This document shows positions 8,421-55,622 of a stretch of DNA of 64,000 nt, piece by piece (the stretch's first letter is position 1; each line of letters starts with the position of its first letter). Origin of the DNA: Octopus vulgaris (Eukaryota). The stretch is from contig OX597818.1 of assembly GCA_951406725.2 (NCBI GenBank), forward strand, positions 67,208,001 through 67,272,000, written 5' to 3'. The notes under the pieces were generated by a model, which was not told the origin of the DNA, did not search any database, and was given only the letters and a program-made list of their open reading frames with translations. Both the position numbers and the translations under genes were made by a program.

Positions 8421-8617
8421 TATTTCTTTAGTGCCCACAAGGGGCTAAACATAAAGGAGATAAACAAGGACACACAAAGGGATTACGTCGATTACATCGA
8501 CCCCAGTGCGAAACTGGTACTTTATTTATCGACGCCGAAAGGATGAAAGGCAAAGTCGACCTCGGTGGAATTTGAACTCAGAACGTAACGGCAGACCAAA
8601 TACCTATTTCTTTACTA
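8421..8617 (-). mobile_element. SINE family B fragment (core GCCTTTCATCCTTTCGGGGTCGATAAA)
   Basis: Matches copies at 10790-10985, 14085-14534, 38522-38660 and 41258-41466; the core resembles Meta/MESC-type SINE cores from memory, not verified. Confidence 0.8.
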
Positions 8618-9837: not shown

Positions 9838-10003
9838 TGGGCGGTTTAGCTTAATGGTTCAGAGCACTGAGACGCGTAATCACGAAGGTGTGAGTTCGAA
9901 TCTCATAGCCGGCCGCCAACACTTTTTTAATAAAATGGCGGTGCCCCAGCATGGCCACAGCTCATAAGCTGAAACTGGAAAAATCAAAAATCAAAATCAA
10001 AAT
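9838..10003 (+). mobile_element. Short SINE: tRNA-like head fused directly to a LINE-type tail
   Basis: TAGCTTAATGG (A box), GAGTTCGAATCTC (B box), a T-run, then GGCGGTGCCCCAGCATGGCC-CAGCT/AGCTG hairpin-AAAC-(AAAATC)n. Confidence 0.7.
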
Positions 10004-10574: not shown

Positions 10575-10790
10575 GGCGCATGGCTCAATGGTTAGAGCGT
10601 CGAGGTTTAGAGCATGAGGTTGTGAGTTCGATTTCACATTGCACCAGTTCACTCAGTTGTAGAAATGAGTTGCGACATCACTGGTGCCAAGCTGTATCGG
10701 ACGTTGCCTATTCCCTTGCATAACATCAGTAGTGTGGAAAGGGGAGGCTGGAATGCATGGTCGACTGCTCGACTTCTACAGACAACCTTA
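10575..10790 (+). mobile_element. tRNA-derived SINE family C, internally deleted and 3'-truncated
   Basis: TGGCTCAATGG and GAGTTCGATT boxes; body CAGTTCACTCAGTTGTAGAAATGAGTTGCGAC matches the reverse complement of 35845-36151. Confidence 0.8.
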
Positions 10791-10985
10791 CGGTGGCAAT
10801 CTGGCAGAAGTTGTTACTGGTATTTCGTTTCAATTTCCACCGAGTTCAAATCCCGCCGAGATTGACTTTGCTTTTCAATCCTTTCGGGGTCGAAAAATTA
10901 AGTACCAGTTGCGTATTGGGGTCGATCTAATCGAATATCCCCTCCCCCCAAATTACGGGCCTTGTGTTTAGAGTAGAAAAGAATA
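10790..10985 (+). mobile_element. SINE family B
   Basis: GAGTTCAAATCCCGCCGAG...CTTTCGGGGTCGA...GTACCAGTTGCGTATTGGGGTCGATCTAATCG; abuts the family C copy. Confidence 0.8.
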
Positions 10986-12699
10986 TATATGTATCAGTGT
11001 TTGCTATCTTTGTTATATAGATCAATGTTCTTCTGTTTGGGTGCACATTATTGACGTGTCAGTTTTGGTATTTGGTTGTGTTTAGTATATTTTGGCTTCT
11101 TTGGCTCCTTCTCACCTCCTTTGACATCGCATGCAGGGAGAAAGAATATTGAAGATCAAATGCATCTTTAAGGTGTGTGCTCGTGACTCGATTCCAGTCG
11201 TTTCAGGGGCCCTTTTGTGTTGCGGTCTAGGATGTCGGTGTGCATGTCTACAGCAATGTTCAAGATGCAAAACCTGAACTCGCTCGTTCGGCTTGCATGA
11301 GTTTTTTGGGTTCTCCGTATAACTTTGCAGCTTTAAATACTTTCGCCCAAAAGGCTTAAGCACGTTCCGAGCAATGCTAGGGAAGTGCTTTCCAAGAGGA
11401 GATCTTTTATGGCAATGACGTTACAACATTCATATAATCTATACACACGCACGCGTACACACACACACACATATATATTTCTTGTGTATGTGTGTGTGCG
11501 CGCGTGTGTGAAGGAGTCTGTATATGAAAATCTATGCATTGTTTCTTTCATTGTGACTTAACACTCTTGAATTTCTGATTCTAATTCGTCTGAAGTGTTC
11601 TATAAATTGCAGCCATCTAATAATTGAGTTATGAAAAAAAAATAGACAAAATTATACATAAAAGTTACATATAAAAAAGCTGTAATAATTCAATACATTT
11701 CGGTCAGTCTTTACCTTAGGAAATCTCCTACACAAAATTACGTGTTATTCAAAGAAGAATCTAAGCGCACACTTTCTTAACTAGCACTTACATAATTTAA
11801 TTATATCTAAAAGCTATGTAGGAAATTTAGAATTCAAGAAAGAATTATAGTCTTAACCTATCACTAATTAATGAATTGTCTAAATTGATCGAAAATATAA
11901 ATTGTAGTTATTTGTTGTTTCCTTTTGATTAGTTAAAGTCAATTGTTTTTAACTAAAAATGATGAAAGATTTCATTTATATTTTCCACCATCGAAATTTT
12001 TAAAATATAAAGAGTAGAAAGTTTTAATTACATACGACCAAAATTATTAAAATATAAGTAGTTAAATTATAAGTTACGTTATATAATGGTTTATTTGTTA
12101 AATAATACTTTCATGATTATTTAATTGAGGTATTCAGACATCGTAAAACTTACTTCATATGTTTAAGGGGAATACATGGATTTTAACTTTTAAAAATCTT
12201 CGGCTGTAACAGGTCTTTTATTTAAATTATAGTGGCATGGTTCCTTGTGTTTCCTAATCTTGTATGTCTTGTCTTCTCCCTAAATTTTTATGTGAAAAGA
12301 ATAGTCAATTTATTCGTTGTGAACGGATGTACAGCCGTCAGAGGATGTTCAGTAAATTTAGACCAAAAAGCCATAAAGGTATTTTAAATCTAGGATTATA
12401 GAAACAATATCTAGTCTTCGAAGAGGGAATGGGGATTCACAGCCAAAATTGTACTGATAATGTTAGAAAATCGGGTTGGGACTCCCTAACTTAGGAAGAA
12501 ATATAAGCTGAGTGTGTTCCGTCCGGTGGCGAATAAGAAATTGATCGTTTCGAAAAATTGATTTTGAGAAATGATAATAGCATGCGTAAAAGAGGGAGGA
12601 AGCTTAGTGGCTTTACGAACAATAGATCCAATCTACTCATTCCATTAAATGTCCTTAGTAAAAGATACACAGGAAAGAAAAATCGAAACTTGAAAAGAA

Positions 12700-15029: not shown

Positions 15030-15198
15030 TTTACATTATACATCGTTATATATTATTTACGTTATTTGCATTTGGCATTTGTCCTCATCTTGTTTGTTGT
15101 TAACACAGCGTTTTGGCTGATATACCCTCCAGCATTCATCAGGTGTCTTAGGGAAATTTCGAACTTGGTTTCTCATTCCTAAGAAATTTTTCGATATT
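15030..15198 (-). mobile_element. PLE-P1 pLTR 3' fragment with degenerate hammerhead
   Basis: Reverse complement GACACCTGATGAATGCTGGAGGGTATATCAGCCAAAACGCTGTGTT...GATGAGGACAAAT; homologous to 27605-27780. Confidence 0.85.
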
Positions 15199-15840
15199 GG
15201 TGAGTCATAACAGAAAAAGCCTTTAAGCTTGATCAGCTAAATTTACGTATTACAATGCCTTGCAACTTTTCCATTCGGTTAATTACACCTTAGTATTTTT
15301 TACCTACCTACATTATACATCAAATTGAGAATGAGAACCATAACTATATTCGCTAGCTGAACAGCGTCATAACGCATGGACAATCTTTATCTTCTGAACA
15401 TGAGATGTAGATTTATAACCCCACTGATTTGAGACTGTTTTACAAACCCAGACAGAGAGACAATAAATTGATTTGAGTGAATGGAAGCCAAACCTGTTCA
15501 TACAGGTGCCACTCAATCTAATATTTATTACGTGCACAATCTCTTATTTATATGTAAAAATAGCATGTTATATATGACGTTTTCATTAATAACATTAAGA
15601 ATAATATCGGGTATAATTTAATATTTTAAAATCTATTTCAATCTCACAGCAGCACAATAAAATTACACGTAATATTTGCTGATATTCAAAGGAATATATT
15701 TAAAGAAATAAGGCCGCGCAAATGTAAAGAATAGATTTCCAATAAATAATAATATATTGTCAAATCTGAATGAAGTGGAGTATGAGAAGATGGTAGAACT
15801 TTGACACATGCGGAAAGTTAGAGGCTAACATGTAACCACG

Positions 15841-25909: not shown

Positions 25910-26533
25910 CAGTACTATATTTAAGAGATGAGGAATTATTTACATTATTTACATTTGACGGTTATTTGTCACAACACAACGTGTCGGCTGATATACACTT
26001 CATCAGGTGTCTTGGGGAAATTTCGAACCTCGGTTCTCATTCCTAAGGTACATTTTTGATGTTATTTTAATTATAGTAATAATAATAATAATTGGAATCG
26101 AACTCGGAATCTTGGGGTTAGAAGCCCGCGATCTCAACTACTACGCCATATGCTCGTATGCAATTATGGAGTGAATTTTAGGGCTTATAAATATCCTTCC
26201 TTAATACCGGTTCCTATATGCTGCTCATATCTGCATTCGGTCTGCTTAGGAGGTTGTTGCGTCCTAGCATATGTGCTGCTTCTTTTAGTTTCCGTATTTT
26301 CCATTGGTGTTCTCTGTCTATTATTTCAACAGGGGGAGCTGGTTTTCTATTTTTAATACATGATCAACTATACCCAATTTATAAATATCTCCTCGTGTCA
26401 CAGTTTTGCGATGTTCGTCTACCTTTATTTTGAGGGAGCGACATGAAGGCTGAATGGTACATCAGCCGAAGCGTTGTTTTAACAACAAACAAGATGAGGA
26501 CAAATATCCTTCAAATGTAAATAATATAAATAA
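25910..26533 (-). mobile_element. 5'-truncated Penelope-like element (PLE-P1): GIY-YIG C-terminus, pLTR with tRNA-like head, (AAT)n and hammerhead, plus an inverted partial pLTR at 26443-26533
   Basis: Minus-strand translation of 26440-26177 gives a PLE endonuclease C-terminus; pLTR homologous to the 27372 and 48364 copies; an inverted pLTR at the truncated 5' end is typical of PLEs. Confidence 0.85.
26177..26440 (-). pseudogene. PLE GIY-YIG endonuclease C-terminus
   Basis: RSLKIKVDEHRKTVTRGDIYKLGIVDHVLKIENQLPL / VEIIDREHQWKIRKLKEAAHMLGRNNLLSRPNADMSSI*EPVLRK (one frameshift, one stop); not in the ORF track. Confidence 0.8.
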
Positions 26534-27371
26534 TATACTTTTACTTCTTCTTTGCTTCAAGTACACTGCACATTGCAATGCTGCGTTCCCTCAAAAAGTT
26601 ACTTTGATCAAATATTTCTCGGTGAAATTTGGCATCAGAGAATTGTAATCTATCATTCGACAAAAGACTTAATAATCAAAGTCTATAATATTGTTCTTAC
26701 GACCGATATCAACCTCAAGAAAGTGAAATATTACAGGATTAACATATCTTTTCTTTAGGCTTCAGAAATGTCGTGCACCATGCCCTTTACAAGAGACTAA
26801 TCGTTAATATATGGTAAGTAGTTCATATGCGCATAAACATCTGAGTTATTACCATAAAAGATCATGAGTAATTAGAGTGTAATTTTAACACCACCACACT
26901 AACACCACCACACTACATACAAAAACATTCAACGACGACCTCAAGAACATATCCGAAGGCCAATCACAAACACAGAGGTTCTCTTTATAATGTGTGTGTA
27001 TGTGTGTGTGTAGAGGGAGAGAGGGTTAAAGAAGTAAACAGACAGATACACACCCACTCTATACCGCACACAGTCTCTCTTTGTATCGCTACCTATGTCT
27101 CATATACTTTCTCATTCACCTGCATGCAGAATATACACCTACAACATGAGACACTCACACACAGAATTAGGCAGAGACGTGAGGTAGATGTGGAGTAATG
27201 GGTAGGGCGTGTCATTACTCAGGTCACGGATGGCAACGAAAGGAACTTTGACAAAGTTGAATGTTTGGTTAACCTAAGGCAGATAGTCAATTGGTTAAAT
27301 AGTTAACCGATGAAGAATTAAATAGTAAAGACGCCGCTCCCAAGATTCAATACAATATTTTCAACACACAA

Positions 27372-27550
27372 GCGTAGTGGTTACGAACGCTGGATACTAA
27401 CCCCAAGATTCCGAGTTTGATTCAGGTAGTGACCTGGATAATAGTAGTAGTAACAATAATAATAACAACAACAACAATAATAATAATAATTATAATTATA
27501 ATAATTATAATAATTATAATAATGATAATAATAATTATAATAATTATAAT

Positions 27551-27597
<47 letters not shown>

Positions 27598-27780
27598 CAA
27601 CAACATCGAAAAATACATTAAGAATGAGAACCCAGGTTCGAAATTTCCCCTAAGACACCTGATGAAGACTAGAGGGTATATCAGCCGAAACGTTGTTTTA
27701 ACAACAAATAAGATGAGGACAAATATCCTTCAAATGTAAATAATGCAAATAATTCCTCATCTCTTAGATATAGAACCGTA
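27372..27780 (+). mobile_element. Solo PLE-P1 pLTR / SINE-like copy (tRNA head, (AAT)n, hammerhead, tail)
   Basis: Starts at GCGTAGTGGTT; B-box-like GAGTTTGATTC; (AAT)n at about 27438-27604; ends TTCCTCATCTCTTAGATATAGAAC like the 25910 end. Confidence 0.88.
27654..27699 (+). ncRNA. Minimal type I hammerhead ribozyme motif (PLE-P1)
   Basis: GACAC-CTGATGA-A-stem II-GAAA-CG-TT-GTTTT; both core boxes intact; consensus of copies gives stem I GACAC/GTGTT and stem II GGCTG/CAGCC. Confidence 0.65.
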
Positions 27781-30851: not shown

Positions 30852-31335
30852 ATATAATAACAAAATAATAGATAAAACATATGCATATATACAAACGTAT
30901 ATCTACTAGCTACCTCTACATGTATATATACATGCATATATGGGTACAGGACACCAAAAAAACGTCGAACACAATGAGAAACGAAAACAAAACAAAACGA
31001 AGGACAGGGACATTTGTTTAAACAACGAAAAAACAGAGTACAAACATAGAACACAAGGAAAATTCCCCTTCTTCAGCCGCCTCTGCTTCGTCTTACTCCG
31101 TGTTAGGCGGCTGAAGAAGGGGAATTTTCCTTGTGTTGTATATTTGTACTCTGTTTTTTCGTTGTTCAAACAAATGTCCCTGTCCTTCGTTTTGTTTTGT
31201 TTTCGTTTCTTATTGTGTTCGACGTTTATTTGGTGTCCTGTACCCATATATGCATGTATATACACATATAGATGTAGCTAGTACATATATGTATGTATAT
31301 ATGCATATGTTTTATCTATTATTTTGTTATTATAT
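30852..31335. repeat. Long palindrome, arms about 230 bp, 22-bp spacer; probable inverted PLE pLTR pair
   Basis: 30852-31082 is the near-perfect reverse complement of 31105-31335; mirrored ORFs appear in the track; CTGAAGA lies near the inner ends. Confidence 0.85.
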
Positions 31336-35844: not shown

Positions 35845-36151
35845 GGGGTAAACACCCCCTTCGGTCATGAATGACCATGGGATTGCACCTAGAAAGTTAC
35901 CCTCCTAGACACAAGTCCGGGCAAGGTTGTTTATGGAAGGCCAGCAGTCGCCCATGCATACCAGCCTCCCCTCTCCACGCCACCAGTGTTATCCAAAGGG
36001 AAAGACAAAGGTCGATACAGCTTGGCACCAGTGACGTCGCAACTCATTTCTACAGCTGAGTGAACTGGAGCAACGTGAAATAAAGTGCCTTGCTCGAGAA
36101 CACAACACGCACTCCGGTCCGGGATTCGAGCTCACAACCTCACGATCGTAA
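35845..36151 (-). mobile_element. tRNA-derived SINE family C (5' tip missing)
   Basis: Reverse complement GAGGTTGTGAGCTCGAATCCC...GCAAGGCACTTTATTTCACGTTGCTCCAGTTCACTCAGCTGTAGAAATGAG; homologous to 10575-10790. Confidence 0.85.
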
Positions 36152-38068: not shown

Positions 38069-38521
38069 TATGCCTACACACATACACACGCATACATACA
38101 CAAACACACACACACACACGTGTTTATATATATATATATATATATTTGTGTATTTGTATGTTTGTGTAGTGTGTGCGTGTGCGCGCGGAAGTTCTTTTGC
38201 GTGTGTAAACTCATGACAAAATAATATATTGACCCGATCAAAATATCGTTGATCACCAAAATAAGATTCTACTTTCCTATTCTAGTTCAACCAACCAATG
38301 AATTTGGTGTTAAATACGATAAATTATTTGGTTTGACCAAAATAATGAAATGCAGAATAAAAATCTTAGAAATTTTGGAAAAGGTGGATAAAAAATATTC
38401 CATGCCATAAAGAATTAATGAATGGATATAATATCGTGCCATAATCTTTGGGGATCAATCACACATTTACAAAAATAGAAGAAAAATAACACATCGCATA
38501 CCTTTCGTATACACTGAGAAA

Positions 38522-38660
38522 TATCCTTTCCTACTCTAGGCACAAGGACCGAAATTTTGGGGAGTGGGACCGGTGGATTTTATCAACCCCAGTACGCAAC
38601 CGGTACTTAAATTATCGACCCCGAAAGGGTGAAACGTAAAGTCGAGCTCAGCGGAATTCA
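38522..38660 (-). mobile_element. SINE family B 3' part
   Basis: CTAGGCACAAGG...CCCCAGTACGCAACCGGTACTTAAATTATCGACCCCGAAAGG. Confidence 0.8.
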
Positions 38661-38702
38661 GACTGAGGAATATTGTACAAAGAGTTATGTACGATGGGGT
38701 AT

Positions 38703-39118
38703 ACTCTTACTCTTTAACTCTTTTACATGTTTCAGTCATTTGACTGCGGCCATGCTGGAGCACAGCCTTTAGTCGAGCAAATCGACCCCGGGACTTATTC
38801 TCTGTAAGCCCAGTACTTATTCTATCGGTCACTTTTTTGCCGAACCGCTAAGTGACGGGAACGTAAACACACCAGCATCGGTTGTCAAGCAATGCTAGGG
38901 GAACAAACACAGACACACAAACAAATACACACACTTATATATATATACATATATACGACAGGCTTCTTTCAGTTTCCGTCTACCAAATCCACTCACAAGG
39001 CATTGGTCGGCCCGGGGCTTTAGCAGAAGACACTTGCCCAAGATGCCACGCAGTGTGACTGAACCAAGAACCATGTGGTTGGTTAGCAAGCTACTAACCA
39101 CACAGCCACTCCTGCGCC
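38703..39118 (-). mobile_element. tRNA-derived SINE family A (full length)
   Basis: Reverse complement of 365-770 over its whole length. Confidence 0.92.
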
Positions 39119-41257
39119 TATATATTTATAAAAGTGTTGTAATATGTTATTCCTGAAATTAATTTGTACTAAAAAGTAAATATGAAACCGAACGAGTGTG
39201 ATTTGGCGAGTGTGCTTTCTTCTATTGGATTATTGAATCTACATTGGTCTTTCATACAAATAATATCAAGTCTGACTTCTAAGTTTCAATTCATATGTTC
39301 TCTTGTAGTTATAGAGTTTTAATTCTATTATGGAAAACAAGTAAAATTTCGTTGAAGCTTTTCTTTCTCTCTATTTTAATTAATGCACTTAGATACACTT
39401 ATTGCACATATGTATACCGGTGTGTGTTCCTATGCAGGTACATATTTATATATATGCATATATATGTGCTTATATGTAACTATGTATACGTGTAAGTATG
39501 AATATGCCTCATTGATGAAAGAGGAGGAAAAGTCAGGGAGGGAAAGCGAGCAGGGGAAGAGAGACGAAGAGAGGCATAATCGGTATAAATATTTGATATA
39601 GTGGATTAATAGTTATAGAAATGCTATATTGATAATTTAATAGATATTGAAAATAACAATCATATTTCAAATTTATTATTCATAAAAGAGAATAATCTTA
39701 ATTTTTCTGACATTCCAATAATATAATGTTTCATAACTTGTCTGCATATTAACAAATTCTAGTATAATTAACTGCATTATATAATATTTCATAAAACCAA
39801 TAAAATCCTAAATTTGCAAGATTAATGTCAATAGTTTCTAACTAAAGGTATAACGTAGAAGAAAAGGAAAGAAAAACTTGTGTCTTTTCACTAATAATAA
39901 GGCGAATTCTATGAGAAATAAAGGAAACATTCCAAGATATTTTACATTAAACCAAAGCATTTTACGGCATTATTCCTTCTATGATATCCATTCAAAGTAT
40001 ATTTCTAGGGAATATAAATGGATTTTGTGTTTATAATTCTTTTTCAAAGAGGCTTTCATATTCAGTTTGATTTTCAATAAATTTGACATTTCAATGATTG
40101 AATCTCGTGTTTATATATTCATGAACGCAAGACTATCTACACACACACACACACGCACGCAAGCAAATACTCGCGCGTGCAGAAACGTACGTACACACAA
40201 ATGCACGCACACAAACACACGCACGCACACACGTGAACATACAAGCACGCACACACACTAATGTTATACATATATATTTACGTACATAAACATACACACA
40301 CCGACATGCACACATACATATATATGAATACATCAATATGTCCGGCTACAGAATTTATACTAATATCATGTATATAATAACGCAATAATGCGTCTACATA
40401 TATGTGTATATTTTTGTATTTACAAAGGTGTGTTTGAAAGGAGACAGGCATAGAATATATGGTCATAATACGAGGAAGCTAGATAGAAATTAACAAAGAT
40501 GACAAGGGTGTGGGGTAGATAATACGTTTGCAGATTTAGAGAAATATATGAAGAATTGAAAATGCGATTATTGATATTTGAAGGGAAAGGCTTGCTGAGT
40601 AGGATGTTATGAAGAAAGACTTATATAGAATAGCAAAAATCTATGCGGATAGTATAACTGAATTACCGCTTAGCTGAAGTTGCCACTGGGAATGGCATTA
40701 TGTGAGGAGTAGGAGCAAGTATTTCACGGTCGGGGGCAAGTACCAGATTAAATACGTTGACAAACGTCCATATTTGTAGCACGGTAGTCAATGCAATGTG
40801 CATCGCAAAGAAAAATGTGACGACTGGTCGGGAAATGATAGGTCATGTAAGTATATGGGTATATATCGTGATGAGATTTAGCGGTATAAATTAATCATCT
40901 ATAGGAAACCAAATGAGGTCAGTGAGTGCACATGATTTGTATGCGGTTGTAGATAATACAGCGGTGATTTGACACCGAGTCTCTACATGCATGTTCTGAC
41001 ACCACCGTAAAACACCATAGATTCGCGTGAAGGGTCTATTACCCGACCAACCACCGTGAAGCTAGGACCGGGGCAGATTATTCTTTAACAAATTATTATG
41101 TTTCACTTCATATCTCCTATAAAAAGCCGTTGGGTGCGCATTTATAGGACCCATGAGGGCAGCGAAGACGAATGGCGCAGAGAGGTTGACAGGAACTTTC
41201 GTCGCCACGTGTATGACAACATTGTTTGCAGTTATGCTAGGCAAGCCATATATCATT

Positions 41258-41466
41258 TACTATTCTAGGCACAAGGCCCGAAATATATGGGGAGAGCGGC
41301 AGTCGATTAGATCGACCCCAGTACGCAACTGGTACTTAATTTATCGACCCCGAAAGGATAAAAGGCATAGTCAACCTCGGCGGAATTTGATCTCAGAACG
41401 CAAAGACAGACGAAATACTGGTAAGCATTTCGCCCGGCATGCTATCGTTTCTGCTCGCTGCCTCAG
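41258..41466 (-). mobile_element. SINE family B (near full length)
   Basis: Reverse-complement head GGCAGCGAGCAGAAACGATAGCATGCCGGGCGAAATGC, B-box-like GAGATCAAATTCC and the conserved core. Confidence 0.85.
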
Positions 41467-45301: not shown

Positions 45302-46042
45302 TTAATTGCTTGTCGTAGACCAGTTTAGAAGTGGCTTGTATTTTGTAATAAAGAGATTTTCTTTACTTATTCGTTGTCTCGAGGTTGTATCGTCCCTAAA
45401 TTGGTAGAGGGGGAAAATTCTGAAGTTTGGTGTTATTTTGTTGGCGCAAGTATCTATGTGTTGGCTAAAAGCTATTTTTCTGTTTTGGGGAATTTTTATC
45501 TGGGATCTGTGCAGGGCCATTCGTTTACGCAAACCATTTTTTGTTTGGCCTATGTACTGCTCTTGACACCCGGAGCAGGTTAGTGAGTATATTAGGTTCT
45601 CCGAAGCACATGTGAAGTTGCTTTTCACTGTAAACCGTTGTCCCTGCTTGAAGGAGAACTCTGATCCCTCAATTAGATAGTCGCATATCCCGCAATTGGG
45701 TCTTCCACATTTTTTTACTGTCGGCTTCTGTGTTGAGGAGTGAATTCGGGCTTGTGTAAGGATACTTTTCATGGATCTAGGCTGGCTTTTGCTTTTTATG
45801 ATCGTGTGTGTTTGGAGGATTGTGTTCATTCTGTGGTCTTTTTTTAGGAGGGGTATGTTGTGGAGGATGGTGTCGAAGGCTTCGTTATTGAGAGGGTTGT
45901 GTGTGGAGATGTATGGTAAGGCTTTTGGTTGTAAGTTTTTCTTTGATTTGGGATGTCTCAGTTCCTTGATGTTAAGTTGAAGGGCACGTTGAATGCACTT
46001 GTCAATAAGTGAAGGTGGATAGTTCCTGGTGATTAGGGTATC
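45302..46042 (-). CDS. PLE ORF C-terminal part: RT thumb, zinc-binding linker and GIY-YIG endonuclease (fragment)
   Basis: Stop-free frame LITRNYPPSLID...CGRPNCGIC...FTCASENLIYSLTCSGCQEQYIGQTKNGLRKRMALH...SKENLFITKYKPLLN. Confidence 0.9.
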   Translation of the reverse strand, partial: DTLITRNYPPSLIDKCIQRALQLNIKELRHPKSKKNLQPKALPYISTHNPLNNEAFDTILHNIPLLKKDHRMNTILQTHTIIKSKSQPRSMKSILTQARIHSSTQKPTVKKCGRPNCGICDYLIEGSEFSFKQGQRFTVKSNFTCASENLIYSLTCSGCQEQYIGQTKNGLRKRMALHRSQIKIPQNRKIAFSQHIDTCANKITPNFRIFPLYQFRDDTTSRQRISKENLFITKYKPLLNWSTTSN

Positions 46043-46047
46043 TTTTT

Positions 46048-46355
46048 GCCTCTAGTCCTAGGTTGTGGGGGATATTGGAGTAAAGGTTGACTACATCGAA
46101 GGATACCAGTATGGTGTTTTTGTTTATAGTATTCGGTAGGTGATTGAGCATATCTAAGTCGTCCCTTATATAGCTTTTGACATGTTTGAGGAGTGGTTTT
46201 AACAGGGTGTCTAAAAAGTTACTGAGGCGGTGGATTTCGCATGCGGGACCTGCTATTATGGGTCTCAATTTGAGGTCATTAGGATTAGGGACTTTAATTA
46301 TTTTGTCTGTAGCTATCTTGCATGCGTTGCTTATTTTTTCACTTTTGTGGATCTT

Positions 46356-46547: not shown

Positions 46548-46583
<36 letters not shown>

Positions 46584-47843
46584 TACATATATAAATAAGA
46601 GTAATAACCACCAAGGCTGATTCCTAACATGCTAGAAGAAGACGCCAAATCGCCTTACCACGCCTTATTCTCAAAACTTTTAGCAGATGCCTGAATTTTT
46701 GAGAACATATTCTTCGTGGTAAGGCGATTTGGAGTCTTCTTGTAGCATATAAGAAATGCACCTTTTGTGCTATCCCTTTTATTTCTATATATAATATAAT
46801 TTATAGTCTTCGGACATTTTGAAGTATGATAGGCCACTGATTTAAATTGATATTATTCGCTAATATTAAGTTCTGCCCTCATTATTTAATTTATATATGC
46901 ATATGTGTGTGTGTGTGTGTGGGGGGGGTTGTACGCGTGGAGTTTGTGAGTGTGTGTCTGACATTGTAAAATATTAGCAGAGAAAGCATTGAAAACTCGC
47001 TAAAAGATAGACATAAGGTAAACTATTTGAAAAGTATGGATGCGCATGAGTGTATTGTGAGGGAGGGAGTCGTGTGTTTTTTCGAGTGTTTGTTTTTGTG
47101 TACTTCTTCCTGAAAAAATGATCCCCACAAAGAACAAACTATTCTTCATTTCAATAACTTATGAGTGATTTATCAATCCTTTGGGAAACGCTTAAGAATG
47201 AATCCTTACCCCTTTTCACAAATAGTAATAACCTTAGTCCTGTTAAAGTACTCATCTACCAGATCCTCTACGCAAACCTCAACCTGGTCGTCATTACCTT
47301 ACCACGCCTTCTACACCATTTCTCCTCATTCCGACGCCAGAGATTATTGTTCGTTTCTTTAATCTTCTATATATTATATATTCGAGCATCTGCGGCCCTC
47401 TCTCTTAATGGTAACCCTGAGGCAAATAATCCTATCGTTTTTTCATGGATTTACTATTGGTGATACACGTGATCAAGTGCTAATGTAATTCCATACATTC
47501 GGTTGCTCGTCAGGTACATTCTCATGCATAAATCCCCATTGACATTATAAATATCTACGAACTGGAATCGGGTGATGGACCCTTTGGACGATAACAGCTT
47601 CTAGCAGCTTTGTCGAGTCACATTTTCATATGAACTAATATTTTTCTATCTTTTGTTATGTTACTATCCAGATATTTGACCGAAACAAGTCGGCCCGGAT
47701 CTGGAATTGGTGCCTACAAAAAATAAATATGCAAAACAGGATTTCCTCCCACACAACAATTCAATTGCGAGAGTAAAATCACGTCTCCCAAATAATTACC
47801 GCTTTAGGCTTTCCAGTGACGAACTAAAGAACAACCTTTGAAT

Positions 47844-48094
47844 TAAAGTGATAGCATGTTGCCAACTTAATGTGACAGTCCCATGAAAGGGAAGAATGGT
47901 ACTGTTATTTAGCCCTAGGAAACACCGTTTCCTGTTGGACTTGACACGTTTCCTGTGTCCTTATGTTTTCAAAGTGGAGACAAGCACTTCCACCCAGCAA
48001 AATGGTGTTTCCTAGGGCTAACTAACACAAGCATTCTTCCCTTTTATGGTTTTATGGGACTGTCACATTAAGTTGATAACATACTATTACTTTA
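47844..48094. mobile_element. Foldback MITE with about 90-100 bp inverted arms
   Basis: CAACTTAATGTGACAGTCCCAT / ATGGGACTGTCACATTAAGTTG and TTAGCCCTAGGAAACACC / GGTGTTTCCTAGGGCTAA. Confidence 0.8.
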
Positions 48095-48363
48095 TCGTGC
48101 TGCTACGACATAAATCTCTCTGAGAGATTTAGAAATTTATTATTTCAACATTTGAATTGTTTTCACTAAAACTACAGTGAGTTTATATCTGGCTTTCTTA
48201 TACATGTGACACGATATCCAGATTAACTACGAAGTTCCGGTTCCTCTTTCATACAGATTCCTGAATCCGGTAATAATCTTTCTTCTAATGGAATCGGCTA
48301 TCGTCAGATAATCAGATTTATATACTTATCCTGTCTGGATGTAAGAGTATGAAAGTACTATAA

Positions 48364-48427
48364 TGGCGTAGTGGTTAAGAGCGCGGGCTACCAACTCCAA
48401 GATTCCGAGTTCGATTCCAAGGAATGA

Positions 48428-48514
<87 letters not shown>

Positions 48515-48603
48515 TAATAATAATAATAACAACAACAATAATAATAATAATAATAATAATAATTATAATAATAATAACAACAACAACAACAGCAATAATA
48601 ATG

Positions 48604-48696
<93 letters not shown>

Positions 48697-48842
48697 TCGA
48701 AAAATACCTTAGAAATGTGAACCCAGGTTCGAAATTTCCCCAAGACACCTGATGAAGGCTGGAGAGTATATCAGTCAAAACGTTGTGTTGACAAGAAGCA
48801 AGATGAGGACAAATATCCGTCAAATGTAAATAATGTAAATAA
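48364..48842 (+). mobile_element. Solo PLE-P1 pLTR / SINE-like copy
   Basis: A box TGGCGTAGTGG, B box GAGTTCGATTCC, (AAT)n at about 48432-48695, hammerhead at 48744-48789 (GAAA changed to AAAA). Confidence 0.9.
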
Positions 48843-52682: not shown

Positions 52683-53152
52683 TAAATTAGAGATAAAACC
52701 ACTATTAGACAAATCATACAATGAAAAACTTAAGCCAATATATATAATTAATTATTTATATTATTAAATATATATCAAAATTATTAAAAAAAGATAATTA
52801 GTATAACACTACGATCGTTTCATGGCTGTCCAATTCTTAAAATTTCGAGTTACAGTCATTCTTCAGGTGATTGAAATATTTAACTTAGCGAGGAATGACT
52901 GTAACTCGAAATTTTAAGAATTGGACAGCCATGAAACGATCGTAGTGTTATACTAATTATCTTTGTTTAATAATTTTGATATATATTTAATAATATAAAT
53001 AATTAATCATATGTATTGGCTTAAGTTTTTCATTGTATGATTTGCCTAATAATGAGTTGCCTAATAATGATTTGCCTAATATTTTACTATAAAATTGGAT
53101 TCAATCCTAAATCTGATTTTTCCCGGTAAGTTTGGATTTATTCCCTAATATT

Positions 53153-53202: not shown

Positions 53203-55173
53203 GTGTCTCTGAGTGTTAGATCATATATATATTTTACATGCACATATGCGTATCTGTATTTGCATCTCCCACTCCTTCTCTCTGTCGTTTGATCCAGCAC
53301 CCTATGAGTGTTATTACATTTGTGGGTCAGTAACTTTACCTATATAGGTTTATATTTAACTTGCTTTATGAAGGATCCTCCTTGTGCAGTTGAAGCACAT
53401 ATCGTTTCCTTAATCTCTAAAAACTTCAAACTGTTAGAAATATCTAACTCGAAAGCCAGAATACCTATTTTTCACAACTATAATGCATCATTCAGGAATA
53501 ACATTTATACGTGTTTTGTTTGTTATTGTAACGAAAACAATTTCACGTTGCCTAAAACAGTTTGATTTGCAAGAACTTCACCAACAGGTTCTTTTTTCAC
53601 AGCGTTACTTGTACCTCAAATACGTTTGTGGAGTACAGCATATATTTATTCATTAAGAGTGTCGCGCGTATTCATATGTATTGATACGATATTTCGCAAA
53701 ACATATTATTATTGCGCAGAGACTTTAGCTGTGCTGGACTTTTCATATATAACAACAGCAAGTGTTACAAACAACAAGAGAAATAGCAAATTGAAATTAC
53801 GTCGAACTTTATAGAAACAGTACAATGTGAACGGCCCAACTTCTCTGGAAACAGTTGTGTTACATTTGTTGCAGCGGAGATTCCTGTCCTCTATCTCTGT
53901 GTTCTGGTTTATCGCACCCCTTGATGGTTTTTTTATGGCAATACAGACATATGGCGTTGCCACCTCTACATTCTGGCTGGTAAGAGGAGAGATGTGAGAA
54001 TAATTTCGCCGCTCTCATCAATCTGAAATGTATTTAGGCGCCAACACTTGTCTTTCATGGGGTAAAAACAGAAGATTCTATATAATGGAATGATGCGATG
54101 GCTTGGAATTGATTGGTTGCTTTAAACACTGATCACTTGAGACTACTATGGTTCGTTCTTACTGCATTAACGATTACCTAGCGTAGAGGTTTCGAATCAC
54201 CGCTACAATCGCATAACGCAGCTTGCCTACCGATGTGGCGCTCCAGGATTACTGCTAGGTCTGACAATTTCTTCATGCAACACCGTCTGAAGAATATGGG
54301 TGCGAAGCCCTACACGCAATAATAATGATTTTGTATAGTTTCCCAATATGACACAACGGTTACGAGTCGTATATATTCTTAATATTACCGAACTCTGAAG
54401 TCAAACATGATTTCTTTCCTTTCGTTCTGTAATATTGGTCAAAGTCCACTTAACAGCCATTCATGAAGAGAGTTCATAAAAACAAAGATTGCATATTTGT
54501 ATTTTTCTAGCCGAATCAAAAGAAATCATTTATTATCATGATCAGTAACTTTAATTCGATCACACATACACAATCCGGGAGTATTTCAAACTACAAATGC
54601 AACAAAACACTAAAGCAACTCACTCTTAACAGGAACAATACATGACTCTCATCTAAGCGATAATGACTAAACTACACTTTTTCACAATGTTGGAGGAGTG
54701 CCACCAAAAGTAAGTCTTTCTGAGTCACTCGCAGTTTTATAAGTACTTTTATTTCTACTAAAACCATATAGAGTGGTCCTTATGTAACTGACTGATACGA
54801 CGTTGAATTTTCCGAGTGACACAAACAACAGAACAGCGGCTTGGGATATTAAGGTGCAAGAGGCTGAGTACACTACAGACACTCGTACACTTAACATGGT
54901 CAAATCACCAAGATTTTCCCTTGTAAACTGTTCATAACATGTTCTTGTCATCAGAGAATGTATATATGTATTGTAGTATTTTGTGACAACCAGTAACTCA
55001 CACCACCAAGCTTTTACATGTTACTTTTGACAATCATTTTCTAAAAAAGTTAAACCGGTAAAGTAAATAAACGTCTTTTAAAATTGCATATTCAAACCGT
55101 CTTTCATATATAATTCCACTCGTGCGATACCTTACAACTCCACTTTGTTATATATATATATATATATATATAT

Positions 55174-55571
55174 ACTCTTTTTTACTCCTTTACTTGTTAC
55201 AGTCATTTGAATGCGGCCATGCTGGAGCACCGCCTTTAGTCGAGCGAATCGATCCCTGGACTTATTCTTTGTAAGTCCAGTACTTATTCAATCGGTCACT
55301 TTTGCCGAACCGCTAGGTGACGGGGACGTAAACACACCCACATCGGTTGTCAAGCAATGCTAGGGGGACAAACACACACACATACACACATATATATATA
55401 TACATATATGCGACAGGCTTCTTTTAGTTTCCGTCTACCAAATCCACTCACAAGGCATTGGTCCGCCCGGGGCTATAGCAGAAGACACTCGCCCAAGATG
55501 CCACGCAGTCGGACGGAACCCGGAACCATGTGGTTGGTTAGCAAGCTACTTACCACACAGCCACTCCTGCG

Positions 55572-55573
<2 letters not shown>
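55174..55573 (-). mobile_element. tRNA-derived SINE family A (full length)
   Basis: Reverse complement of 365-770; (TA)n on both flanks. Confidence 0.92.

Positions 55574-55622
<49 letters not shown>

Follow-up and report, generated by a model that had tools for sequence, protein, structure and literature searches.

Solo copies of an octopus Penelope-like element that start in a tRNA-like head, and their possible origin from Pol III transcripts

A tRNA-like head with an A box and a B box lies in the 3′ untranslated region (UTR) of a Penelope-like element (PLE) of Octopus vulgaris, and two solo copies of the end of this element start within that head. Five pieces of the element, A to E, were located in the 64-kb stretch of contig OX597818.1 that was analysed (positions 67,208,001 to 67,272,000; hereafter the window). 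We put at roughly 0.5 the probability that the solo copies, B and C, descend from RNAs started at the head, presumably by RNA polymerase III (Pol III), and copied by the PLE protein. Judged from its sequence, the element would behave in a SINE-like manner with a PLE as partner; a separately breeding family is a proposal. Mobilization of copy B by PLE RT/endonuclease is well supported, and was the best-borne-out part of the idea put forward in an earlier sequence-only reading of the window.

Copy B occupies 27372–27778 on the forward strand (407 bp) and consists of head, microsatellite and PLE end module. The tRNA-like head (27372–27437, 66 nt) begins at tRNA position 10 and is followed by an internal composite (AAT)n/(AAC)n microsatellite of about 165 nt (27438–27601). 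The PLE pLTR module then runs to a short 3′ end (27602–27752) and includes a minimal type I hammerhead motif at 27654–27699, with its core from 27659, assigned from the core motif and the stems. An optional PLE tail of 26 nt (27753–27778) takes the copy to a long 3′ end. The 177-nt end module is common to the four other pieces in the 64-kb window. The homology to copy A that had been noticed from the tRNA-like head at 27372 onwards was confirmed by alignment: 27372–27423 matches 26146–26095 of A with 85% identity, and B can be aligned with the end module of A as far as 27776. The start does fall in the A box, as had been claimed, but inside it rather than at its edge, the first two bases being missing; the B box carries a single C-to-T change. 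Copy B has lost its promoter and cannot serve as a source.

The longest piece, copy A (25910–26442, reverse strand), joins an ORF end, head, microsatellite, pLTR and long tail. Its 26193–26442 section is the broken 3′ end of a PLE ORF, encoding the C-terminal part of a GIY-YIG endonuclease with one frameshift and one stop. The tRNA-like head within the PLE 3′ UTR follows at 26093–26155, and then, at 25910–26092, come a short, partly inverted microsatellite and the pLTR with the long tail, in which two internal deletions are present and the ribozyme is broken. On the element strand the microsatellite of A (26060–26095) reads (ATT)n, the reverse of its orientation in B, C and the contigs, and A lacks 13 nt after its B box. 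Copy C (48363–48842, forward strand, 480 bp) has a head from tRNA position 7 with both boxes intact, a microsatellite of about 265 nt and a pLTR that runs to the short end. Its start at 48363 is 3 nt from that of B in tRNA numbering (positions 7 and 10), bearing out the near-coincidence reported earlier. The flanks upstream of the heads are unrelated, also as reported: over 150 nt before the head, none of the three pairs differed from shuffles (p 0.30, 0.49 and 0.23). Copy D (15052–15202, reverse strand) is a headless pLTR that starts exactly at the microsatellite/pLTR border and has the short 3′ end.

Piece E (26443–26537, forward strand) is an inverted, 5′-truncated pLTR fragment that adjoins the 5′ break of A. 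An inverted 5′ copy is a hallmark of PLEs (excerpts of PMC8557442), and because E is inverted and lies directly at that break, A and E are probably the same insertion. All five copies or fragments that had been counted in the 64 kb exist, but they probably represent four insertions, and a head is present in only three of the five pieces (A, B and C). Within the shared module, pairs of pieces are 84–92% identical (mean 87.6%), which corresponds to about 19 My at the rate given in PMC13282606; the same source, in its accessible part, dates a SINE/LINE burst close to this, at 18 My. B and E share two variants (E 26478 and 26510) that are absent from A and occur in about 6% and 1–2% of contigs. 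The sharing could be due to chance, local conversion or two templates.

The ORF tail of A is 87% identical to protein P0001, and the separate ORF pieces match it at 85% and 60% (E 2.6e-28). P0001 has 27 longer relatives, among them proteins with RT and GIY-YIG and a model from Octopus sinensis, and the ORF tail of A aligns with the C-terminus of one RT-bearing protein, P0004, at 62% and 46%; the full element is absent from the window. The annotation of O. bimaculoides includes a spurious ORF that spans the end module. Pfam searches with the ORF fragments and P0001 gave nothing at a useful level, and a PDB search gave distant RT matches only. Inspection of the relatives P0004 and P0042 revealed CCHH in EN and no CX2-5CxxC linker finger, the window copy itself starting downstream of these features; CCHH in EN without the linker finger is a Penelope/Poseidon trait in the available portion of PMC8557442. 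The parent, judged by inspecting these relatives, thus fits an endonuclease-bearing (EN+) PLE of the Penelope/Poseidon type. Between 24,518 and 30,479 contigs per DNA run were placed on the A+E stretch. In each of three DNA runs, 100–120 contigs had letters differing from A at 26154, 26158 and 26159, immediately 5′ of the head; individual contigs also extend from the ORF or UTR into the head (26093–26270 in run X1, 26032–26188 in run X5). A GIY-YIG ORF precedes the head not only in A but also in numerous other copies in the genome, and the head therefore belongs to the PLE. The window also contains another PLE remnant, unrelated to this one, at 45323–46268 on the reverse strand; its RT and GIY-YIG pieces are 28–40% identical to P0004, and its motifs look Neptune-like.

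The tRNA-like character of the head rests on its boxes. For numbering, tRNA position 8 was equated with the T that opens the A box (A 26148, C 48364, B 27370). In A and C the two boxes lie 45 nt apart, exactly as in a class I tRNA. A strict scan for both boxes at this distance found four matches in 64 kb, whereas 25 Markov shuffles averaged 0.04 per window; the four are the heads of A and C, a tRNA-Thr-like gene and one other repeat. The head of B was found only in a loose scan, the count of which equals background (27 versus 26.1). None of the three heads matched the Rfam tRNA model at E<=10 and none was called a tRNA by ARAGORN, indicating that the cloverleaf was lost or never there. The earlier proposal of a tRNA-like Pol III head is thus backed by boxes at tRNA spacing in A and C, but not by the tRNA models. 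Among the 150 of 221 matches listed from an Rfam scan of the whole window were microsatellite/miRNA noise and one tRNA. A tRNA-Thr(CGT)-like gene above the Rfam tRNA cut-off lies at 9839–9918 on the forward strand and is followed by a T6 run. Lack of a T4 terminator on the sense strand was discarded as a sign of Pol III transcription, as it is expected from composition (66–77% of shuffles also lack one) and B has one.

The end module carries a hammerhead with a 5-bp stem I, a 6-bp stem II and a palindromic stem III. Metazoan PLEs have minimal type I hammerheads with a stem I of 4–5 bp, a long stem II and a palindromic stem III (PMC4209133, in part). Stems I and II were paired in 91% and 88% of cells, as compared with 34–53% for the whole structure when slid, while two-sided change (covariation) was seen in 0 of 21 stem pairs in these five decayed copies. 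By inspection, the whole core is kept only in B, which has two mismatches in stem II and one in stem I; G12 is lost in C and D, part of A is deleted and E is truncated. Rfam gave no hammerhead match on copy C. The earlier description of B as ribozyme-bearing therefore holds for the motif and its intact core, but the stems of B are damaged. We consider the motif a minimal type I hammerhead and its ribozyme activity a presumption, no copy in the window being fully intact.

Downstream of the hammerhead the element has two 3′ ends, 26 nt apart, the long one used in A and B (two of five pieces) and the short one in C, D and E (three of five). The contigs point to the same two ends. Loose contig ends with unrelated flanks were found at the long end, 25910, in 166 (X1) and 215 (X5) contigs, and at the short ends, 26525 and 26534, in 181–235 contigs. 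Spurious ORFs covering the module behaved alike, with four of 14 running through the tail, eight ending at the short end and two ending earlier. These 14 were sorted by eye from 27 matches, the remaining 13 being nine from a sister family and four due to chance. Near the short end the only simple repeat is an imperfect 9-bp unit present 2.3 times, (AAT)n being internal. The tail of B pairs back with a 9-nt arm at 27711–27719 (fold z −3.33). The anole PLE PAc has a tail and two sites of RT initiation, with internal priming close to the ORF start (accessible part of PMC11167929). When the tail peptide P0076 was compared with the first 40 residues of the full RT ORF P0042, a position chosen from the PAc model, p was 0.014; tail peptides of the window copies against the whole of P0042 were not significant (p 0.25–0.27). 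The tail probably consists of the first codons of the PLE ORF, as in PAc.

The sister family (P0078, P0082, P0083, P0085, P0088, P0090 and P0094) is known from spurious ORFs only. Seven of its nine ORFs contain two or three tandem units of about 39 codons over hammerhead and tail, resembling retrozyme arrays, and its tail matches the N-terminus of the RT ORF P0042 (p 0.001–0.003). P0049 has an inverted copy of the module at its start.

The PLE-type tail, the two 3′ ends, the inverted 5′ fragment and the lack of a TSD together argue for mobilization by PLE RT/endonuclease, as the sequence-only reading had supposed. No TSD, of the kind for which that reading had called, was seen directly at either end of any of the four insertions (B, C, D and A+E). 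We envisage a PLE made up of an ORF, then the tRNA-derived head with (AAT)n, then the hammerhead-bearing pLTR; the simplest origin for this architecture would be a simple tRNA SINE that once inserted into a PLE 3′ UTR. Pol III, directed by the A and B boxes, would start RNA at the head and run through pLTR and tail. The PLE protein would bind this RNA, nick AT-rich DNA and prime at one of the two tail sites, and its RT would copy back to the RNA 5′ end with the loss of a few bases, giving rise to B and C. These copying steps are modelled on the anole PLE (PMC11167929, as far as accessible) and are suggested here by the ends of the copies. A and D would be ordinary longer and shorter 5′-truncated products. 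The source RNAs may come from free copies, which would make a true family, or from pLTRs that an ORF still accompanies.

Several other explanations could produce solo copies with these ends. PLE insertions are mostly 5′-truncated (in the accessible text of PMC8557442), D and E break off at other points, and the starts of B and C lie 6–9 nt short of the predicted +1, at different bases. B and C might then be ordinary 5′-truncated copies, the RT having stopped near a GC-richer, structured head once past the microsatellite, and the head having no promoter role. ORF-tail contigs are also abundant, and summed depth at the head is only 1.4–2.2 times that of the best ORF bin, a ratio that is not a copy number. 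Truncation nevertheless seems unlikely to us. Two of the four insertions, B and C, start in one window comprising the first 10 nt of the head, and uniform truncation over the length of A gives this a probability of about 0.002 (range 0.00007–0.006; post hoc, n=4). The three heads fold no better than shuffles (z +0.95, −1.02 and −1.16), and summed depth drops 5–7 fold from the head to the adjacent UTR, a drop of which mapping bias is a possible cause.

It is rather improbable that B and C arose by run-off from a Pol II mRNA of the PLE itself, started in an upstream pLTR near the head. In such a scheme RT primes at the tail of the upstream pLTR and the cDNA extends from tail to transcription start, so that neither Pol III nor a separate family is needed. 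An internal promoter in the upstream pLTR drives transcription of Penelope (excerpts of PMC2377424), internal priming in PAc takes place close to where its ORF starts (PMC11167929, in part), and the tail found here resembles an ORF start; what run-off leaves unexplained is the coincidence of the start with an A box and a correctly spaced B box. Because the transcript would start in the upstream pLTR and RT would initiate internally at the tail, run-off also predicts a pile-up of 5′ ends, and the sharp 5′-end peak earlier offered in support of SINE behaviour would not be decisive. Least credible, and very improbable, is a chance composite of a LINE-dependent tRNA SINE with an (AAT)n tail and a headless pLTR inserted later at ATT. 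PAc does cleave at ATT (PMC11167929, in part) and D starts exactly at the microsatellite/pLTR border, but all three heads in the window lead to the pLTR through the same junction, and numerous further copies have the head after the ORF.

Beyond the reading that we prefer, in which Pol III starts RNA at the head and the PLE protein copies it, the element might be a true Pol III SINE family. We advance only tentatively, as a possibility that we would not back at even odds, that this family is a major one in octopus, has a PLE rather than a LINE as its autonomous partner and is propagated from ORF-free source copies. With the same reserve, it may have been born in the PLE 3′ UTR, with the PLE priming tail and the hammerhead as its recognition element. 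SINEs are defined in SINEBase as LINE-dependent (PMC3531059, in part). The octopus copies are short (B 407 bp, C 480 bp, under 700 bp), non-coding, interspersed and numerous, as SINEs are. In place of a LINE partner, their 3′ part is a PLE end with a PLE-type tail and two ends, and in place of a simple-repeat 3′ tail they have an internal (AAT)n. With PAc, a template must include about 172 nt of ORF past the priming sites (excerpts of PMC11167929), and solo copies may therefore be dead ends.

Searches for further copies and boundaries added little. No peak of loose 5′ ends at the head was seen among the top six listed per run, the substitutions of A hindering mapping there, and no empty site was present among the 15 of 317 contig joints listed. 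Viral contigs, metagenome contigs and prokaryote genomes yielded 0 matches in a search for further copies with flanks. A search for loci by protein found a single distant one (L001, 41%), and viral contigs gave none; with the antisense translation of C as query no candidates for ORFs across the 5′ border of the head were found among proteins of 22–70 aa. Summed contig depth in the three DNA runs gave ratios of 2.8–3.5 for pLTR/head, 5.2–7.2 for head/adjacent UTR and 1.4–2.2 for head/best ORF bin; in run X14, only guessed to be RNA, ratios were 18.6 and 11.5. Contig depth was rejected as copy-number evidence, as it cannot rank the parts of the element and the substitutions of A bias mapping.

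Two other dispersed repeats were observed in the window. One of about 450 bp (336–800, 38700–39130 and 55149–55600; 86–90% alike), with a loose A/B-box match at 370, is possibly another SINE. The other is shorter (10631–10988, 35923–36081, 38521–38658, 41248–41424 and 8487–8603) and has a strict A/B-box match at 10802. Near-palindromic, MITE-like stretches of 200–500 bp are present at 30852–31335, 52700–53054, 46583–46794 and 47844–48094.

A tRNA-headed element partnered by a PLE, with a tail that reproduces the PLE end base for base, would, if real, represent a new class of partner and extend the SINE definition to a third class of retroelement. It would also offer PLE priming in trans a short, naturally occurring substrate, and the element lets the sufficiency of a tail-ended pLTR for such priming be tested directly. 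If instead one of the rival explanations holds, what we describe is a PLE that has taken up the remnant of a tRNA. In the O. vulgaris genome, SINEs account for 11.6% and PLEs for 6.83%, and most active SINE families are unclassified (accessible part of PMC13282606). The octopus repeat may be divided between SINE and PLE classes in annotation.

Three tRNA-derived octopus SINEs, OK, OR1 and OR2, were reportedly described by Ohshima and Okada in 1994. OK is said to be about 410 bp and OR1 about 390 bp long, and copy B, at 407 bp, is close. The octopus element may be OK or OR1, and, if the PLE-partnered reading is true, the partner of a long-known octopus SINE might be identified. OR2 is a CORE SINE (PMC4758252, in part) and is therefore unlikely to match the octopus copies. 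The consulted portions of PMC4758252, PMC9223172 and PMC3747384 held nothing relevant beyond this, and those of the octopus annotations PMC13282606 and PMC8967140 made no mention of a link between PLEs and SINEs. No PLE-mobilized tRNA SINE in octopus was found in the literature searched, which included few subscription papers and neither Repbase nor Dfam. The novelty earlier claimed, on the grounds that SINEs take LINE tails and retrozymes lack tRNA heads, was overstated, given the known tRNA–hammerhead elements of Schistosoma and the non-autonomous PLE derivatives already described (PMC8557442 and bioRxiv 10.64898/2026.07.22.740005, both in part).

The closest relatives are the solo and truncated pLTRs of EN+ Penelope/Poseidon elements (excerpts of PMC8557442, PMC4209133 and PMC11167929). 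They share with the octopus copies the GIY-YIG ORF end, a minimal type I hammerhead with a long stem II and palindromic stem III, two 3′ ends, an inverted 5′ fragment and 5′ truncation. The optional PLE tail is 30–40 bp by the PLE criterion, as compared with 26 nt here. Among these elements, as far as described in the same excerpts, only the octopus PLE has a 3′ UTR with a tRNA-type A/B-box head and (AAT)n, and solo copies that start at the head. Sm-alpha and Sj-alpha of Schistosoma also combine a tRNA-derived part with a hammerhead at high copy number, Sm-alpha being tRNA-Gln-related and apparently transcribed by Pol III (PMC2770079 and PMC6765202, in part). Sm-alpha differs in that its hammerhead is canonical (PMC4209133, in part), its copies are often tandem and no PLE is named in the accessible text as sharing its end, whereas the octopus copies are monomers with a tail that is demonstrably a PLE's own end. 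Non-LTR retrozymes (available parts of bioRxiv 10.64898/2026.07.22.740005 and PMC7229834) are likewise non-coding, pLTR-derived, presumably PLE-mobilized and equipped with a type I hammerhead; they consist of at least two tandem hammerhead units, in contrast to the octopus window copies, all of which are dispersed monomers with a tRNA head. The MRC1-type non-autonomous Chlamys elements (PMC8557442, in part) are similarly non-coding, pLTR-derived and presumed to be mobilized by a PLE. A promoter for Pol III derived from a small RNA and set in the terminal repeat of a retroelement is found in the Cassandra, Helenus and Ajax TRIMs (excerpts of PMC10886601). These are non-autonomous LTR elements, whereas the octopus host is a PLE and the head is present in ORF-bearing copies as well. 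What looks new is thus the occurrence of a tRNA-type promoter inside an endonuclease-bearing PLE, together with solo copies that start there.
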